Source: an uncultured Gammaproteobacteria bacterium
Lineage (GTDB): Bacteria; Patescibacteriota; Patescibacteriia; UBA9934; GWF2-40-263
Length of the DNA: 64,000 bases
Direction: 5' to 3'
Assembly (NCBI GenBank): GCA_964538435.1
Contig: CAZIDX010000001.1
Span: 203,304 to 267,303, forward strand
Shown: positions 10,714 to 16,871 of the stretch, one piece after another
Layout of the letters: the number at the start of each line of letters is the position of its first letter
Position numbering within the stretch: the first letter of the stretch is position 1
Translations under genes and position numbers: made by a program
The notes under the pieces: model-generated
Told to the model about the DNA's origin: nothing
Database searches by the model: none
The model's input: only the letters and a program-made list of their open reading frames with translations

Positions 10714-11032
10714 TTTCAGTACTCAAATATCCACATCTAAACCTTGCAAACTTGATAGCATTATCTCGTTCTTGTTTTGATGAAACCCCTTCAAATATTT
10801 CATCAAGTGTGGGTCTGCCAACAATTCGTTGTAAAAGGGTCAGGTCTATATATGATGCTACTTTCTCGATATCTGTCCGATTGTTGAACAGTGAAGCCCG
10901 AGATGTTTCGCAATTTCAGTACTCAAATATCCACATCTAAACCTTGCAAACTTGATAGCATTATCTCGTTCTTGTTTTGATGAAACCCCTTCAAATATTT
11001 CATCAAGTGTGGGTCTGCCAACAATTCGTTGT
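10633..11032. repeat. 200-bp tandem duplication (10633-10832 and 10833-11032, 2 mismatches) covering the left IR and the 3' end of the transposase gene
   Basis: Direct comparison of the two 200-nt units. Confidence 0.85.
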
Positions 11033-11740
11033 TCTCTTGGATACTCTTTGAGCTGTTCAGAGCCGTTTGTATGATTCTCCCAAATCCAATGAACATACTG
11101 AGGAGACCCAAGTATAAATCCATTCGTGAGATCATTATATGGATTATCCGCAGCAATACCATCCATCACAAACTTTCTATACTGTTTCTGTGCTTCTTTT
11201 CTCTCATCTCCAAATAAACTTAGTATCCAATCTGTGTGCAACCACTCAGGACATTTACTCGTTCCTGCTGTGTGTTGGTAACTACTCCACTTCCATTTTT
11301 TGGGATGGTCGCAGAGAGAATCGCGAACCGGGTTCAAGACAATATATCGAGAAACAGCTAGAAGATAGGTGTCTTTTTCTATAACGAATGCCTTGTAGCG
11401 TCCTTGCATCAAATGTCCGACTGTTTTGTGTCGTGCGTTAAAAGATTGCGTGTAGTTTCCATTAATGTCACGCATAGCTTTTGAGAGATTTCCATCAGGG
11501 GTCTCGATAAGTAAGTGGTAATGGTTGTCCATCAAACAATATGCATGAACGATGAGATTGTGTAGTTCAACAGCATCCTGAATCATTTCAAGAAAAAGAA
11601 GACGATCCTTGTCTTCTTTGTAAATATTTTGATAGCCATTACCTCTAGACATCACATGATAGAGGGCTCCAGGATATTCAACTCTCAGTGGTCTTGCCAT
11701 ATGGTTGATTGTAACACATCCTCATATATAGACCTGACCC
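10837..11740 (-). mobile_element. IS200/IS605-like (Y1 HUH transposase) element bounded by 19-bp perfect inverted repeats GGGTCAGGTCTATATATGA, RAYT/REP-like organisation
   Basis: IR at 10837-10855 and its reverse complement at 11722-11740 flank the single transposase ORF. Extra solo or partial IR copies at 1459-1503, 10637-10655 and 7685-7698. Confidence 0.6.
10858..11700 (-). CDS. Y1 (HUH) tyrosine transposase, IS200-like TnpA fused to a DnaA-domain-IV-like C-terminal HTH
   Basis: LYHVMSRGN … CLMDNHYHLLIE (HuH motif) … RYIVLNPV. C-terminus LSTEIAKHLGLHCSTIGQISRK resembles the DnaA C-terminal DNA-binding helix. Confidence 0.8.
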   Translation of the reverse strand: MARPLRVEYPGALYHVMSRGNGYQNIYKEDKDRLLFLEMIQDAVELHNLIVHAYCLMDNHYHLLIETPDGNLSKAMRDINGNYTQSFNARHKTVGHLMQGRYKAFVIEKDTYLLAVSRYIVLNPVRDSLCDHPKKWKWSSYQHTAGTSKCPEWLHTDWILSLFGDERKEAQKQYRKFVMDGIAADNPYNDLTNGFILGSPQYVHWIWENHTNGSEQLKEYPREQRIVGRPTLDEIFEGVSSKQERDNAIKFARFRCGYLSTEIAKHLGLHCSTIGQISRK

Positions 11741-11756
11741 CATAGCACAACTTCAA

Positions 11757-11843
11757 AACCTCCTGACTCGACTGAGCATGTACAAAACCACCTGACGTAA
11801 AAAACAAACTTATAACAAAGACTGCAAAAAGATATTTTTTCAT
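11757..11843 (-). pseudogene. Duplicated 5' fragment of the yibE/F-like gene (promoter plus first ~29 codons) fused to the IS right end
   Basis: 11757-11893 is ~96% identical to 1273-1409. Translating from the ATG at 11841-11843 gives MKKYLFAVFVISLFFTSGGFVHAQSSQEV, then reads into IS sequence. Confidence 0.55.
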
Positions 11844-11916
11844 ACAAGGGAAATTATAACAGATCAGACACCACTCACTTCAAACAAAAAACCACAGCAA
11901 TGCTGTGATTTTTTGT

Positions 11917-11991
11917 TGGCTCGGGGGGTGGGGTTCGAACCCACGACCCACTGGTTAACAGCCAGTTGCTCTGCCACTGAGCTACCCCCGA
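11917..11991 (-). tRNA. tRNA-Asn (anticodon GTT), CCA encoded
   Basis: Reverse complement folds as TCGGGGG-TA-GCTCAGTGGCAGAGC-A-ACTGG-CTGTTAA-CCAGT-GGGTC-GTGGGTTCGAACCCCAC-CCCCCGA-G-CCA. Confidence 0.85.
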
Positions 11992-12233
11992 ACGTTTTCG
12001 TCTAGCCATTTCCTTCCTTGCACACATTTGAGAAACCTCTCTCTTTTCATGGCTTCAGACTTTGTTTGATACTCTTCTACATGGATTAAACTAAATGGCC
12101 CATTTTGTCTAGTCCATTGATTTGTACCAGTTAGGTGTTCATGCAATCGTACATTAACATCCCTGCTTGTAAAACCAACGTATCTTTTGTTGTTTTTTGT
12201 ACTACGCAAGACGTAGACCGAATATTTCTTCAT
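11982..12233 (-). CDS. GIY-YIG nuclease-domain protein (UPF0213/YhbQ-like)
   Basis: YSVYVLRSTKNNKRYVGFTSRDVNVRLHEH. The 3' end overlaps the tRNA-Asn 5' end by ~10 nt. Confidence 0.65.
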   Translation of the reverse strand: MKKYSVYVLRSTKNNKRYVGFTSRDVNVRLHEHLTGTNQWTRQNGPFSLIHVEEYQTKSEAMKRERFLKCVQGRKWLDENVRG

Positions 12234-12237
12234 ACAG

Positions 12238-12329
12238 CCCCCGCCGGAGGCGGGTCCGCCTTTGGCGGAAGTTGCTCTGCCACAAAGCTCTGACCGAAGG
12301 TCAGTCCGCCTCTGGCGGAACCCCCGAAT
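12238..12329. other. tRNA-Asn 5'-half-like fragment interrupted by four 13-15-nt GC hairpins with tetraloops (possible ncRNA or att-site remnant)
   Basis: AGTTGCTCTGCCACAAAGCTC … ACCCCCGAA matches the tRNA-Asn antisense CAGTTGCTCTGCCACTGAGCTACCCCCGAA. Hairpins: CCCGCCggagGCGGG, TCCGCCtttGGCGGA, CTGACCgaagGTCAG, TCCGCCtctGGCGGA. Confidence 0.5.
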
Positions 12330-12471
12330 CTATTCTTTTCTCAAAGAACGAGGAGAGTATAGCAAAAACCAACACCACGCGCAAGGGTCTAAATCCACAT
12401 GCAAACTCTTGAAGTTTTTACTCCTTCATGTTAAACAAACCACGGCAAAACAACCCCCTGGAGAACACCAG

Positions 12472-13326
12472 ATGCCCATCAAACTCGTTGTCACTGACTT
12501 CGACGGCACCATGACCGACGCTGAAGCCGAAGGCCTCCCCTTCATCGAGAGCTACACCGAGATGCTCCTGCACCTCACTGGCCTGGACACCGGGACCTTC
12601 TACGCACTCTTCGACGGCATGTCGCAGCAGATCCATGAGCACCCGCACAAGCACGGTGTGAAAAAGGGTGGAATCATGGTGGCACCTGCCATCGTGGACC
12701 CGTACCTGCGCATGCAGACGATTGCTGGCATGATCTTCGACCGCGAAGGGCTGTTCACAGACTCGCGCGACCGAGCCAACCTGCTCGAGATGATGTTCAG
12801 GGCCAGCTACGCCAAAACCGATGTCGTGCCTCGTCTAGGCGCTGTCGAGCTTCTCACCGCACTCACCCAGAGCAGCGACCTCGACACCTGCATCGTGACC
12901 AATGCACGGACCAAGAGCGTTCAGCACAAACTCGAAGTCATGGGCATGAACTCTGGCAGCATTCCGCTTTGCGCAAATGCCCAGAAATTCTTCATCGGAG
13001 ACGATCCCGCTCGCATCCCCGAGCGCATCCAACTGCTCGAAGAAACCGACGATCACCGCTGGATCTACCCGCGCCGCAGCAAGTACTACGAGCTGCTGAA
13101 CTTCCTTCGCAGACAGAACGAGCTGGACTGGTCCGAGATCTGCGTCATCGGCGACATCTTCGAACTCGACCTGGCCCTCCCCTTCCTCCTGGGCTGCGAG
13201 GTCATCCTGATCGTCAACGACATGACGCCAGGCTACGAAATCGACTGGCTCTCTCGCCTGACAGACGCGCGCGCACGAATCTTCGGCGACCTCAACGACG
13301 TCCGAGGTTACCTCCTCGGATACTAA
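12472..13326 (+). CDS. HAD-superfamily hydrolase (high-GC gene)
   Basis: Motif I VVTDFDGTMTD, RBS GGAG upstream. Start moved from 12262 to the ATG at 12472. Confidence 0.7.
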   Translation: MPIKLVVTDFDGTMTDAEAEGLPFIESYTEMLLHLTGLDTGTFYALFDGMSQQIHEHPHKHGVKKGGIMVAPAIVDPYLRMQTIAGMIFDREGLFTDSRDRANLLEMMFRASYAKTDVVPRLGAVELLTALTQSSDLDTCIVTNARTKSVQHKLEVMGMNSGSIPLCANAQKFFIGDDPARIPERIQLLEETDDHRWIYPRRSKYYELLNFLRRQNELDWSEICVIGDIFELDLALPFLLGCEVILIVNDMTPGYEIDWLSRLTDARARIFGDLNDVRGYLLGY

Positions 13327-13353
13327 CCCCGCCTTGCGGGGTTTTCTGATATA
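13327..13353 (+). terminator. GC hairpin CCCCGCcttgCGGGG plus TTTTCTGATATA (conserved high-GC-block terminator motif)
   Basis: Seen directly. The motif recurs at 14787-14800, 27361-27397, 43758-43770, 62241-62255 (minus strand) and 63427-63439 (minus strand). Confidence 0.6.
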
Positions 13354-13389
13354 CTCTAACTGATCCCGACTAACCCTTAACACAAACCT

Positions 13390-13899
13390 ATGTTAGTCAA
13401 CAACATCCCAACCATGAACATGGACATGTCCGAAACTGGATGCTGTCCAAAATTCCAGCCCCTTGCCTGGGACAACAAAGAAATCGTCCTCGATAACAAG
13501 CTTTTCCTCAAAGTCAAAACAAAAAGCTTCTTGCACATCCCCCTCAACATGAAAGGTGTGTTCATGAAAGCTTGTTCTGACATGCAAAAGCACGAAGCCT
13601 CTCCAACTGACAGTTACATGATCCTCTCGCACGATCCATCTCCTTGGCGAGCCGAGCATTTCTTTGCTGTCACAAAAGAAATCCCAGGATATGAGCATGT
13701 TCGCCTCTCAGGAAACTTCCTTGCCAAAGTTTTTGAAGGCCCATACAAGAACATGCGAAACTGGCACAAAGAACTCGAAGAGCATGTCGCTGGCCACAAC
13801 CGCAAACTCAAAAAAACCTACTTCTTCTACACCACCTGCCCAAAATGTGCTAAACACTGGGGCAAGAACTACGTTGTAGGATTCGCTGAAGTTGAATAG
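13390..13899 (+). CDS. Hypothetical protein (Cys-containing, 169 aa)
   Basis: Intact ORF. Start ambiguous (several Met near the N-terminus). No confident family assignment. Confidence 0.4.
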   Translation: MLVNNIPTMNMDMSETGCCPKFQPLAWDNKEIVLDNKLFLKVKTKSFLHIPLNMKGVFMKACSDMQKHEASPTDSYMILSHDPSPWRAEHFFAVTKEIPGYEHVRLSGNFLAKVFEGPYKNMRNWHKELEEHVAGHNRKLKKTYFFYTTCPKCAKHWGKNYVVGFAEVE

Positions 13900-13901
13900 C
13901 T

Positions 13902-14396
13902 ATGAACTATCTCTTTTGCCCATACTGCGGAGCTGCTTACGAAGACACAACGCAAACACATCTCTTTTGCAATACATGCGGACGAACATTCTGGCAAAAC
14001 TCAAAACCCACAGCCAGCACAGTAATCGTCAACGATCAGGGACAAATATTGCTTGGTAAGCGCGCTGGAGAGCCAATGAAGGATCACTGGGACGTAATCG
14101 GTGGATTCCTCGAGCCAGGAGAAGATCCTGAGGCTGGTGCCATCCGTGAAGCAAAAGAAGAAACAGGCTACAACGTAAAAATCACCTCATATCTTGGAAT
14201 ATTCACAGATCTCTACAGCGAGGAAAAAATCCCAACCCTCAACATCGCGTATTTGGCAAAAATCATTGACGGAACTGAGAAACCACAAGACGATATAGCT
14301 GAGCTCAAATGGTTCGATCCAAGCAAAATCCCTGAAAACACAGCTTTCCAGAACGGGAGAGACATGATTGAGGCTTGGAAACAATCAACAAAATAA
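13902..14396 (+). CDS. NUDIX hydrolase with N-terminal zinc ribbon (NudC-like)
   Basis: CPYCGAAYED…CNTCG zinc ribbon. Nudix box GGFLEPGEDPEAGAIREAKEETG. Confidence 0.75.
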   Translation: MNYLFCPYCGAAYEDTTQTHLFCNTCGRTFWQNSKPTASTVIVNDQGQILLGKRAGEPMKDHWDVIGGFLEPGEDPEAGAIREAKEETGYNVKITSYLGIFTDLYSEEKIPTLNIAYLAKIIDGTEKPQDDIAELKWFDPSKIPENTAFQNGRDMIEAWKQSTK

Positions 14397-14407
14397 GCAA
14401 GGACCGC

Positions 14408-14436
14408 TTGACAAAAAGCGGTTTTTGATTTAGTAT
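14408..14436 (+). promoter_or_regulatory. Sigma70-like promoter (TTGACA-17-TAGTAT) overlapping the NUDIX-gene terminator hairpin
   Basis: TTGACA at 14408-14413, TAGTAT at 14431-14436. Hairpin ACCGCttgacaaaaaGCGGTTTTT at 14403-14427. Confidence 0.45.
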
Positions 14437-14462
14437 CTTTAGTTCAAGACCGGAGGTTCATC

Positions 14463-14735
14463 GTGACCGAGACCCGCACGCAAAAGCAATCCGACCTGGC
14501 CTTCTCTGGCCTGCTGTGCAGCATCCTGATGCTCGTGGGTGCGCTCATCGGCGCATACATGATCATCAGTGATTTCCAGGGATCCCTGGGAATCCCCATG
14601 CTGGTCGTCGGAGGGGCCTCGATCGCGAGGCTCTTCATCAATCGACGCCTCAACCACAACACCCCGCTCGCGAAGATCGCGGCAATCTGCGGGGTCTTCC
14701 TGTGCGGAGGAGGGCTTGCCTTCCTCGTGTACTAG
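14463..14735 (+). CDS. Small hydrophobic membrane protein (high GC, GTG start)
   Basis: GGAGG RBS 7 nt upstream of the GTG. ~3 TM helices. Confidence 0.4.
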   Translation: MTETRTQKQSDLAFSGLLCSILMLVGALIGAYMIISDFQGSLGIPMLVVGGASIARLFINRRLNHNTPLAKIAAICGVFLCGGGLAFLVY

Positions 14736-14849
14736 CAGCCCAACGCCGGGCCGCTACCTACCACCTAATGCATCAGCGCAAAGGGTGGTTTTCTGATACT
14801 ATACCCGCTGGAATTGTCATGCTAGAATACTCGCGTAATAACAATCTTT

Positions 14850-15509
14850 ATGAAACTCAAACAAATCTTTGCCTTACTCATCCTTCCATTATTCCTGATG
14901 GGATGTGGAGGAACTTCTGAACCACAAATTGGCGACGAGCTTGTCTGGAATGATTACAAAAAAGTTTCTGTTACAGTCGATGTTGAAATAACTCCAAACC
15001 CTGCAATCTCATCGGACATCTCAACATACATCGGTTCTGCAGCATTTATGATGGATTTCTGGTTTGCTCCTGGAGGTGGTGACCCAATGCATCAGGAGGC
15101 TTCCTGGCAACTCACGGATTACAGACACTATGCATCAGGCAATGCCACCCCTTGTGTTGGAACTCCGGAAGAAGACGCTTGGAAAACTCGAGATCTGGAT
15201 GTAACAGCAACACTCGCACCAACAGACGATGACGAGGATTTGGATGTCTTCAAATTTCACGCCTCAAATCTTCCAATGGGAGAATCTTTCATGGTCACTC
15301 GCCAGTGCGAAGGTATCCCAGCCACATCCCCTGACCCAGCCCTACTCACACAGCTCGTTCTCCCTCTTTATCAAGAACAATGGCAAATTGACATCTGGGA
15401 AGAGACAACCGAAACAACAACTCGAGAGAATGTTGACCTCAATGGCATGGCGCTTGCAGATGTAACAATTACCGCAACCATGAAACGCGTAACCAGTATA
15501 GACGAATAA
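14850..15509 (+). CDS. Lipoprotein (signal peptide with lipobox LMGC)
   Basis: MKLKQIFALLILPLFLMGCGG. Confidence 0.55.
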   Translation: MKLKQIFALLILPLFLMGCGGTSEPQIGDELVWNDYKKVSVTVDVEITPNPAISSDISTYIGSAAFMMDFWFAPGGGDPMHQEASWQLTDYRHYASGNATPCVGTPEEDAWKTRDLDVTATLAPTDDDEDLDVFKFHASNLPMGESFMVTRQCEGIPATSPDPALLTQLVLPLYQEQWQIDIWEETTETTTRENVDLNGMALADVTITATMKRVTSIDE

Positions 15510-15538
15510 TTATCTACTAATCCCCTAATCTAAAAAGT

Positions 15539-15925
15539 ATGAAGGGATACATTACAAATCTAGAATCCGCCACAATCGAAAATACAGACTACCGCCGTGT
15601 TCTCTACACCGACAAAAACAGCCAACTCGTGCTCATGAACATCCAACCTGGTGACGAAATCGGAATGGAGGTTCACGATCTCGATCAGTTCATCCGCATC
15701 GAAGCAGGAACCGGAAAAGCAGTTCTCGACGGCGTGGAGCATGCACTCGAAGACGGATCAGCAATCGTGATCCCAGCCGGCATGAACCACAACGTCATCA
15801 ACACAGGCGAGACCGAGCTTAAGCTCTACAGCGTCTACTCACCACCAGAGCACATGGACGGCACTGTGCACGCGACCAAGGCAGACGAGCAAGAAGAGCA
15901 CTTCGACGGAACAACAACCGAATAA
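15539..15925 (+). CDS. Cupin-domain protein
   Basis: Small beta-barrel pattern …GDEIGMEVHDLDQFIRIEAGTGKAVLDGVEHALEDGSAIVIPAGMNHNVINTG. Confidence 0.55.
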   Translation: MKGYITNLESATIENTDYRRVLYTDKNSQLVLMNIQPGDEIGMEVHDLDQFIRIEAGTGKAVLDGVEHALEDGSAIVIPAGMNHNVINTGETELKLYSVYSPPEHMDGTVHATKADEQEEHFDGTTTE

Positions 15926-15962
15926 TCAAAAAACTCGAGGCTCATCCTCGAGTTTTGCTTTT

Positions 15963-16871
15963 CTAGTGTGTATGCTCGTCGTGATCATGGTCGTGATCAT
16001 CGTGCTCATCTTCATGCACATGAACCTCAAACTCATCAGCATGTTCATGCCCCTCAACCTCTTGCTCGTATTCGTGCTCATGAGCCCCATGATCATGTCC
16101 GTGAGCCTCATGACTATGAGTCATAGACGCCACAACCATAATTGCGATTCCAAGCAAGAAAATAAACACATTTAGTGAAAGTTTCTTCCTGTCAACCTGG
16201 TGCTTAAGCTCTGGTAACAGATCAGCTGCAGCAATGTAAATGAATCCTCCAGCAGCAATCGGGAGCATGATTGGCGCTGCCATTTCAAAGGTTTGAGTCA
16301 AATAATACCCAACAACCCCTCCCAGAACGACAGTAAGTGCGGCTCCGGCGTTTGCCAGTGCTGCCTTTTTTACTTTCCATCCGCTATGAATTAGCACTGC
16401 AAAATCACCAAGCTCCTGTGGAATCTCATGAAGCGCAACTGCTACTGCTGTTGTGATTCCAAGCGCAGGCGACACGATAAACGCCGCAGCAATTATGAGA
16501 CCATCAATGAAATTATGAATCGCATCACTAAAGATCACCAAGTTTGCGTACGGCTTTTCATGATCGCAGGTCTCTGGATTATGATGGCAACTATGCCAAG
16601 AAAAATATTGCTCGAAAAGATAAGAGCCAACAAACGCGACAAGCGTAAGCGCCATCACAGAATACAGACTAATCTCTCCATGATTACTCATCTCAACTGC
16701 TTCGGGAAGCAGGTGCAAAAAAGCTGATCCAAGCATGGTCCCAGCTGCTAAAGCAACAAAACCAAGCAACCCATCATGAAAATGTTTCCTTACTTTCAAA
16801 AGCACAGCCAAGCCGATAAGCGAAAATGAGGCAATGACTGACGTGGCAAGAATGATTTGTAATAGAGTCAT
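15963..16871 (-). CDS. ZIP-family metal (zinc) transporter with His-rich C-terminal tail
   Basis: HNFIDGLIIAAAF (ZupT HNxxDG motif). C-terminal HD/HE-rich tail. Confidence 0.75.
   Translation of the reverse strand: MTLLQIILATSVIASFSLIGLAVLLKVRKHFHDGLLGFVALAAGTMLGSAFLHLLPEAVEMSNHGEISLYSVMALTLVAFVGSYLFEQYFSWHSCHHNPETCDHEKPYANLVIFSDAIHNFIDGLIIAAAFIVSPALGITTAVAVALHEIPQELGDFAVLIHSGWKVKKAALANAGAALTVVLGGVVGYYLTQTFEMAAPIMLPIAAGGFIYIAAADLLPELKHQVDRKKLSLNVFIFLLGIAIMVVASMTHSHEAHGHDHGAHEHEYEQEVEGHEHADEFEVHVHEDEHDDHDHDHDEHTH

Follow-up and report, generated by a model that had tools for sequence, protein, structure and literature searches.

The window, the whole 64,000-nucleotide stretch of DNA analyzed here, contains a tRNA-Asn look-alike that a collinear comparison identifies as a copy of the 5' part of the neighboring tRNA-Asn gene. 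The copy carries GC-rich double hairpins and forms the leader of a minimal GIY-YIG nuclease gene, which in turn runs into the complete tRNA. The same three-part arrangement is found in at least 70 other genomes, and the look-alike is one instance of this conserved module, since the arrangement recurs among the 80 loci compared below. With moderate confidence, we read the module as a selfish nuclease cassette that resides in a tRNA gene and has been colonized by mini-hairpin elements, and whose movement we infer from sequence.

Anatomy of the tRNA-derived leader

The module comprises the following features, listed 5' to 3' along the minus strand.

12356-12364, minus strand: TGCTATACT, a putative extended -10 promoter element that precedes the tRNA-like start by ~28 nt
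12327-12320 (12320-12328 with the flank base), minus strand: copy of tRNA-Asn nt 1-8, TCGGGGGT, 8/8 matches
12290-12319, minus strand: distal double-hairpin insert, TCCGCCAGAGGCGGA + CTGACCTTCGGTCAG, 30 nt, after tRNA nt 8; a homologous insert occupies the same position in locus L003
12270-12289, minus strand: copy of tRNA-Asn nt 9-28, AGCTTTGTGGCAGAGCAACT, 18/20 matches, spanning the D-arm through the 5' strand of the anticodon stem
12240-12269, minus strand: proximal double-hairpin insert, TCCGCCAAAGGCGGA + CCCGCCTCCGGCGGG, 30 nt, after tRNA nt 28
12234-12239, minus strand: copy of tRNA-Asn nt 29-34, GGCTGT, 6/6 matches, immediately followed by the start codon
11982-12233, minus strand: GIY-YIG nuclease gene, 83 aa (UPF0213, prokaryotic Slx1-like); its stop codon TAG is tRNA nt 8-10
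11917-11991, minus strand: intact tRNA-Asn(GTT) with encoded CCA (ARAGORN; Rfam, 71.7 bits over 11920-11991)
11883-11917, no strand assigned: terminator-like hairpin CACAGCA-N-TGCTGTG with T-runs on both strands, an inverted repeat at the end of the unit

Once the two 30-nt inserts are removed, tRNA-Asn nt 1-34 and minus-strand positions 12327-12234 are identical at 32 of 34 positions, and the T at 12328, directly 5' of the copy, also matches the tRNA flank (flank base plus nt 1-8, TTCGGGGGT). The four hairpins of the leader are distributed two per insert, those of the distal insert having perfect 6-bp stems. The copy reaches the second anticodon base of tRNA-Asn and is separated by 0 nt from the ATG of the GIY-YIG open reading frame; the 3' arm of the proximal insert and GGCTGT together make up a G-rich stretch, 6 nt before the ATG. 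The window leader is predicted to fold strongly (-54.4 kcal/mol, z = -3.7), and no T-run follows its hairpins.

A first-pass annotation of this DNA had described hairpins and tRNA-Asn similarity at this place and had read the segment as tRNA-derived and as the 5' leader of the GIY-YIG gene, all of which the alignment confirms. Its layout requires two corrections. The interruption at the acceptor/D-arm junction is real; the hairpin pair described as preceding the homology is instead a second insertion within the copy, because tRNA homology continues on both sides of it. Likewise, the D-arm and 5' acceptor strand are matched as described, but the copy does not stop at the D-arm and continues into the anticodon.

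These similarities lie far beyond chance. A 20-mer search allowing up to 3 mismatches finds only the tRNA and the look-alike in the window (0.01 matches expected by chance), the collinear leader pattern as a whole is unique in the window (0 expected), and hairpins of the form YCNGCC-NNN-GGCNGR number three in 64 kb against 0.11 expected, all of them at this leader (12240-12319). In these shuffle tests, of the kind that had been suggested as a check, the match to tRNA-Asn exceeds chance. A second suggested check, a covariance-model search, does not recover the look-alike: at E values up to 10, Rfam returns only the true tRNA and spurious mir-266 and IS128 hits between 11000 and 13500, and assigns to 12234-12329 no credible score as a tRNA, a tRNA pseudogene or any other family.

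The GIY-YIG gene (252 nt) is all that separates the duplicate from the tRNA. Its open reading frame ends in GTT CGG GGG TAG, and its stop codon is thus tRNA nt 8-10. The tRNA itself contains no group I intron detectable with the Intron_gpI covariance model, and its 3' end has no second copy anywhere in the 64 kb. The upstream -10 element was not flagged by a consensus promoter scan that requires a -35 box. The eight neighboring open reading frames scanned beside the tRNA encode a Y1 transposase-like protein, a HAD protein, a hydrolase, a NUDIX protein and four unknowns, and no integrase. The Y1 transposase-like gene (10858-11700), 220 nt beyond the tRNA, is RAYT-like (Pfam Y1_Tnp, E = 3e-12), scoring 77 bits with the NCBIfam model REP_Tyr_transpos, under the cut-off of 80. 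The look-alike sits in a divergent intergenic region, upstream of the HAD gene. The annotation had also placed a switch to a high-GC block here; GC content does rise, from 41.5% to 52%, but the rise is part of the block of the HAD gene.

Recurrence of the three-part module

A scan of one genome per species yielded 317 nuclease loci, of which the best 80 were examined. These derive from CPR/Patescibacteria and a few other phyla; totals of 81 or 57 include the window. Genomic neighborhood analysis reveals a same-strand tRNA starting at most 400 nt downstream of the nuclease gene in 56 of the 80 loci, mostly overlapping it or less than 40 nt away. This tRNA is mostly tRNA-Asn, with Ala, Ile, Pro, Val, Met, Phe, Thr, Arg and Lys species also represented. 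Among the remaining 24 loci, the contig ends within ~70 nt of the gene in nine, and in 10 of 11 apparently tRNA-less loci a group I intron interrupts a tRNA-Asn after GGCTGT. The stop codon of the nuclease lies inside the tRNA in 27 of 57 loci, at nt 8-10 in 21 of these.

Both other parts of the module recur along with the tRNA. A hairpin of the same family is present within 200 nt upstream of the start codon in 75 of 81 loci, the distance from its 3' end to the ATG having a median of 20 nt (6 nt in the window), and in most loci 6-37 nt separate the end of the last hairpin from the start codon; 159 of the 221 family hairpins in 352 kb are within 250 nt upstream of a nuclease gene. When stripped of hairpins, the leader aligns to the 5' part of the downstream tRNA of its own genome in 53 of 57 loci, usually from nt 1, and copies that match the resident tRNA are also present at cassettes beside the Ala, Ile, Pro, Val, Met, Phe, Thr, Arg and Lys species. 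At Asn loci, the mean alignment score of the leader is 24.6 against the tRNA of its own genome and 16.7 against the tRNA-Asn of other genomes, the own tRNA being strictly the best match in 18 of 32. Homologous loci, the comparison that had been called for, likewise have tRNA-like leaders and hairpin inserts. The proposal that the duplicate arose by insertion into or at the tRNA-Asn gene holds, its recurrent partner being the GIY-YIG gene.

In most Asn loci the doublet comes after nt 28. Further insertion points follow nt 8, 12 or 17 or lie in the D-loop of other tRNA species, and the base before the doublet is always a T at tRNA sites. The end of the homology varies among loci from nt 9 to nt 43, and for this reason an exact coincidence of that end with the group I intron site was discarded. 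A -10-like hexamer precedes the leader copy by 15-50 nt in 23 of 44 loci; in the same interval before the intact tRNA, only 4 of 44 have one. In most loci, the sequence of the intact tRNA equals that of the interrupted copy.

A minimal GIY-YIG nuclease

The window protein belongs to the GIY-YIG superfamily (Pfam PF01541, E = 1.2e-15, 58 bits against a cut-off of 22.6). Four residues invariant across 29 homologs (G20, H33, E53 and E65) and three that are at least 90% conserved (Y7, Y18 and R29) are all present, while two near-invariant positions have changed (S70C and G71V). The 91 close homologs are 75-146 aa long, nearly all 79-83, and come from Patescibacteria and metagenome bins; the exact window protein is not on record in sequence databases. 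Pairwise dN/dS values of 0.07-0.15 indicate purifying selection and, because the catalytic residues are also conserved, the enzyme looks functional.

To our knowledge, no link between UPF0213 or Slx1-like proteins and tRNA genes has been reported. The family profile matches the solved UPF0213 proteins 1ywl and 1zg2 (E = 2-3e-10), and this match, together with the same minimal single-domain architecture, places the window protein in the prokaryotic Slx1-like/UPF0213 family. A C-terminal DNA-binding domain of the I-TevI or Seg type is absent, the 83-aa protein consisting of the catalytic domain only, and the NCBIfam model grpIintron_endo gives 22.7 bits, below its cut-off of 56. Dunin-Horkawicz et al. 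assigned 1ywl and 1zg2 to the prokaryotic Slx1 family, which they characterized as the minimal GIY-YIG form, lacking auxiliary domains, and as mostly vertically inherited, with a presumed role in repair and one fusion to a TrmH-like tRNA methyltransferase that was taken as a link to RNA metabolism (PMC1564403).

The hairpin doublet family

The hairpins occur as doublets with the consensus TCCGCC-NNA-GGCGGA + CCAGCC-TNN-GGCTGG (65 distinct doublets), in which the GCC/GGC cores never vary. Purines prevail in the first loop and pyrimidines in the second, which gives the doublet dyad symmetry. Outer stem positions co-vary as complements, a statistic that is partly circular because the doublets were chosen as hairpins. 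A single long 30-nt hairpin, considered in place of two short ones, performs no better than shuffles. Family hairpins begin with YCMGCC, and the doublets are flanked by CAGTT/TAGCT on the left and GGCTGT/GACTGT on the right.

Doublets are found well beyond the nuclease loci. About a dozen low-GC viral contigs carry them in short gaps between genes, away from any nuclease gene or tRNA, and in metagenomes one stem variant alone occurs in at least 120 stretches; these scans rule out that the hairpins are exclusive to GIY-YIG cassettes. Phages were rejected as carriers of the cassette: among 2.9 million viral contigs, only two nuclease genes of moderate similarity were found, and both lacked the standard arrangement.

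Among the matches listed for this stem variant (126 occurrences), four lie directly upstream of a GIY-YIG gene, 113 are nowhere near one, and 68 (54%) fall within open frames that extend for at least 50 codons in both directions. Within the same matches, 55 open frames read the doublet in a single frame, as SAxGGPAxGW, usually after a TTT codon. The host proteins are varied: DnaJ, with three insertions in a single gene, is among them, as are MiaB-like, UvrD-like and ABC ATPase proteins; compared with solved homologs, the doublet residues form a 9-residue insertion in a phosphoglycerate kinase and a 13-residue insertion in PurD. Again among the matches listed, TTT is the left flank in 58%, and 22 of 126 doublets (17%) stand between direct repeats of 3 nt or longer that resemble target-site duplications, an enrichment over the 5% with shuffled partners that is not general; no target-site duplication was seen at tRNA sites. 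The doublets thus occupy many unrelated sites, in frame in conserved genes, as in-gene palindromic repeats do. Their distribution shows that they constitute a separately mobile family of mini-elements inserting preferentially after T-runs, which pile up in the dispensable tRNA copy and elsewhere stand in frame in housekeeping genes. The first-pass suggestion of a later colonization by GC-rich mini-hairpins therefore holds, the hairpins of the window being members of this family.

Signs of a dynamic cassette

Several pairs of loci suggest that the cassette changes place and content. Loci L046 and L049 are 99.1% identical over exactly 334 nt, a span that comprises tRNA nt 22-28, the doublet, a spacer, the nuclease and tRNA nt 1-34, and no similarity was detected on either side of it (the two loci are from two metagenome bins). 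L046 has both an extra doublet at nt 8/9 and a group I intron, and L049 has neither. Between L021 and L022 the flanks are 95-100% identical, and L022 has an additional 113-nt unit without a nuclease (tRNA-Pro nt 1-18, doublet and spacer) between the nuclease and the tRNA. Tandem units are present in L004, L008 and L010, and two whole cassettes in L045. In L016, hairpin-bearing 5' and 3' tRNA-Asn fragments flank the cassette, and the intact tRNA-Asn between them has a different sequence, which gives the impression of a resident gene that was split and replaced.

Turnover is also evident in the leaders, the source of the copy in L057 and L058 being a different tRNA-Arg isoacceptor, and several loci having older, degenerate copies further upstream. 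In the nuclease tree, clades associated with particular tRNA species are nested among Asn-linked genes, and occasional switches of host tRNA are therefore indicated. Between the window and the 80 loci the cassette alone is conserved (79% DNA identity to L001), with no neighbor gene in common. No true empty site was recovered; the best homolog of the window's HAD gene is only 56% identical.

A probable selfish cassette inside a tRNA gene

The reading that we consider probable is that the look-alike represents the original, promoter-proximal nt 1-34 of tRNA-Asn, displaced by a compact cassette that now sits inside the gene and consists of a tRNA 5' copy with a GC hairpin doublet, a minimal Slx1-like GIY-YIG nuclease and a complete tRNA. 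Transcription would start at the tRNA's own promoter and proceed through the hairpin-bearing leader, the nuclease and the tRNA to the terminator. The nuclease frame would open 6 nt past the last hairpin and close at the UAG formed by tRNA nt 8-10, so that one transcript could yield either a tRNA matured by RNase P or a fully translated nuclease, not both, and nuclease expression would therefore stay low. Both the hairpins beside the start codon and the fact that the stop codon overlaps the RNase P substrate would throttle expression. Such an element, comparable to a homing endonuclease and welded to an essential tRNA, could persist in its host, and could spread or duplicate by recombination using the tRNA sequence on both sides as homology.

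Several observations weigh against a selfish cassette. The protein is a catalytic domain only, unlike the characterized GIY-YIG homing enzymes, and its strong purifying selection and wide distribution would equally fit a host function, as would the fusion to a TrmH-like methyltransferase, read as a link to RNA metabolism (PMC1564403). The stop codon is within the tRNA in only about half of the loci, the comparison of L046 with L049 rests on two metagenome bins, most metagenome doublets (the 113 of 126 among the matches listed) are away from GIY-YIG genes, and the window's own lineage yielded no empty allele. In addition, the identity of the intact tRNA with the interrupted copy in most loci means that a purely sequence-specific enzyme would cut its own allele as well.

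The closest known parallels to such a cassette are the free-standing homing endonucleases of T-even phages. Phage T4 SegB is a free-standing GIY-YIG enzyme encoded in a tRNA region (PMC2988022). SegB and the window gene are both small GIY-YIG genes wedged among tRNA genes (PMC2988022); in both systems expression would ride on host transcription, a conserved gene would protect against deletion, and a stable RNA hairpin stands at or just before the ribosome-binding site. The window family differs in being a bare 81-83-aa Slx1-like catalytic domain without a DNA-binding module, in lying, on this reading, within the tRNA transcription unit with its stop codon in the tRNA (27/57), in being accompanied by a tRNA 5' duplicate (53/57) and a hairpin doublet (75/81), and in residing in cellular (CPR) genomes rather than phages. 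A further parallel is collaborative homing (PMC2988022), in which a free-standing endonuclease works together with a group I intron that has no ORF of its own: the tRNA-Asn of at least 10 related loci has a group I intron after GGCTGT, the very end of the window copy. Unlike in that system, the window tRNA is intronless, cassettes on other tRNA species break in the D-loop, and the end of the homology varies.

It is also conceivable, though in our view unlikely, that the Slx1-like GIY-YIG nuclease mobilizes the 30-nt doublets themselves, the tRNA-parked cassette being the autonomous form and the solitary doublets its non-autonomous derivatives. Such ‘micro-transposons’ would insert after T-runs into intergenic DNA, into tRNA remnants and, in frame, into housekeeping genes. 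The near-universal doublet before the nuclease gene may mark a master copy of the hairpins, serve in regulation or simply occupy a hot spot. The best precedent for the doublets is provided by the Rickettsia palindromic elements, which are 105-146 nt long and occur in frame in conserved proteins and also in tmRNA and RNase P RNA genes (PMC2229807). The doublets share with them, and with other MITE-like repeats of bacteria, a palindromic structure, many unrelated sites, in-frame positions in conserved enzymes, presence in tRNA-derived sequence and polymorphism between close relatives. They differ in their length of only 30 nt, in comprising two independent 6-bp hairpins with NNA and TNN triloops, in favoring one reading frame (SAxGGPAxGW), in concentrating upstream of one gene family and in lacking consistent target-site duplications.

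Alternative explanations

A functional RNA that controls expression of the nuclease, the tRNA or both, akin to the structured or regulatory leader suggested in the first-pass annotation, is the most credible alternative, although we regard it as unlikely. The hairpins could occlude the ribosome-binding region, or the 5' copy could compete for the 3' half of the tRNA and thereby switch the transcript between ‘mRNA’ and ‘tRNA precursor’ forms. The retention in the leader copy of the acceptor-strand sequence of the own genome's tRNA fits such a role, as do the closeness of the last hairpin to the start codon in most loci and the strong fold of the window leader; in phage homing-endonuclease genes, ribosome binding is indeed controlled by hairpins (PMC2988022). 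Against it, the D-arm portion of the copy is free to decay and to take up insertions, with two mismatches in the window and heavy disruption in L003, L046 and L079. Older copies upstream are degenerate, the homology ends anywhere from nt 9 to nt 43, no Rfam family matches, and the dyad symmetry of the doublet is not something an RNA role requires. Sense-strand G-U and A-C mismatches number 5 and 9, which shows no G-U excess but is an uninformative count.

A somewhat fainter prospect is that the hairpins are REP-like sequences moved by a Y1 (RAYT-type) transposase, with the tRNA remnant as a landing pad and the GIY-YIG gene unrelated. The RAYT-like gene beside the window tRNA suggests this possibility, as do four RAYT-like genes located 0.5-1.9 kb from doublets in 772 kb of hairpin-centered metagenome loci (a weak enrichment) and the location of most hairpins far from GIY-YIG genes. 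None of the 80 cassettes, however, has a RAYT-like gene within 2.5 kb. A RAYT is flanked by its own REPs, which are numerous in extragenic DNA, and the window gene has no flanking hairpins, those of the window being confined to 12240-12319, although action in trans would be possible. REPs carry a conserved GTAG foot; none is seen here, given the YCMGCC start of the hairpins and the flanks described above. The doublet just upstream of 75 of 81 nuclease genes would also be left unexplained.

The first-pass annotation had offered a decayed partner att site of an old integration targeting tRNA-Asn, which now appears very improbable. Integration into tRNA genes is classical, and inserted DNA is bordered here by a partial duplicate of the tRNA, as in tRNA-targeting integrative elements. 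However, it is the 5' part of the tRNA that is duplicated, with no copy of the 3' end in the window; the insert is a nuclease gene of about 250 nt, with no integrase in the eight neighboring frames scanned; and the same arrangement is present in at least 70 genomes. Finally, a chance resemblance combined with ordinary terminator hairpins, in keeping with a location between divergent genes, has a negligible probability given expectations of 0.01 or lower for the 20-mer and the collinear pattern, hairpins not followed by a T-run, and recurrence in other genomes.

Implications for CPR genomes

A search of the full-text literature, with most subscription journals outside its scope, found no published description of the cassette, the hairpin sequences or the SAxGGPAxGW peptide. 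The cassette resembles the free-standing homing-endonuclease kind, and the hairpins would be extremely small in-gene palindromic repeats, apparently undescribed. For genome analysis, the cassettes and the hairpins affect tRNA counting in CPR genomes and give rise to tRNA pseudo-fragments and spurious protein insertions in annotation, and many metagenome contigs break at the cassettes. The 30-nt double hairpins add ten residues to conserved enzymes in low-GC contigs of uncultivated bacteria. If the nuclease does mobilize them, they would be a nuclease-driven kind of element not described before and an unrecognized source of 10-residue insertions in CPR proteins. For the widespread nuclease family itself, tRNA-gene DNA and hairpin or cruciform DNA become candidate substrates. 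If the selfish reading is correct, many ultra-small uncultivated bacteria carry a selfish nuclease gene within the transcription unit of an essential tRNA, which would give a parasite gene an unusually tight route both to expression and to protection from deletion.

Hairpin doublets and tRNA fragments around tRNA genes

Among the best 80 of 317 homologous cassette loci, L016, L019, L030, L036, L042, L050 and L055 carry copies of the tRNA 3' part downstream of the tRNA, and the junction that bears a hairpin doublet in the upstream copy bears one here too. In these loci, the cassette and the intact tRNA are thus bracketed by two hairpin-bearing tRNA fragments. Single family hairpins also occupy tRNA-like genes themselves: one replaces the D-arm in L073 (2746-2820), which ARAGORN still calls tRNA-Met, and another replaces the anticodon arm in L101.

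A separate arrangement is seen in L001, L009, L029, L038 and L078, where short inserts of about 57-190 nt lie immediately 3' of the tRNA, and beyond them the last 17-25 nt of the tRNA occur again. These inserts look like another kind of small element, one directed at the 3' ends of tRNAs. In L003, L004, L015, L032, L041, L046, L064, L068, L071 and L072, tRNA-Asn(GUU) is interrupted by a group I intron between anticodon nucleotides 35 and 36. The viral contig L100 has an insert at the same site, within which a candidate HNH-like ORF appears on inspection by eye. No published report of this tRNA-Asn 35/36 intron site in these bacteria was found.

Hairpin doublets within protein-coding genes

The 30-nt GC double hairpin is also found in-frame within conserved housekeeping genes of metagenome loci (L109-L228; e.g. 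L129, L137, L147, L148, L163), including those for Pgk, PurD, DnaJ, MiaB-like and UvrD-like proteins; one DnaJ gene carries three copies. The frame bias is strong: in 55 cases, the in-gene doublets of these loci are read in a single frame, as SAxGGPAxGW, usually preceded by a Phe codon.

Contig ends at cassettes

Assemblies stop within about 70 nt after the GIY-YIG gene in L025, L033, L034, L037, L049, L056, L067 and L075, and at 210 nt in L008. Such breaks suggest that metagenome assemblies are split by repeats of the cassette or of the tRNA.

The cassette and its surroundings in the window

Two genes lie near the window tRNA:
10858-11700, minus strand: RAYT-like gene for a Y1 transposase, scoring 77 bits with NCBIfam REP_Tyr_transpos (cut-off 80)
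11985-12233, minus strand: GIY-YIG nuclease gene of the cassette

The nuclease differs at two near-invariant family positions (FLKSGQGRK to FLKCVQGRK), changes that may mark the start of decay. The RAYT-like gene lies on the tRNA's far side, 220 nt away, and has no flanking hairpins. After the tRNA, a 52-codon ORF begins with TGTATGAAAAAATAT (11832-11846), identical at 14 of 15 nt to the start of the GIY-YIG gene (12222-12236), and is preceded by TGTTATAAT-TTCCC (11850-11870), a stretch similar to the promoter that L001-L003 have ahead of the leader copy. Judged by these likenesses, the two stretches may be the remnant of another cassette, or may have arisen by chance.

From the HAD gene onward, certain blocks (12400-16000, then 26-27, 32-34, 43-45 and 62-64 kb) have a GC content of 50-59%, up from about 40%. 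The best HAD homologue among 5.8 billion proteins is only 56% identical; the organism thus lacks a close sequenced relative.
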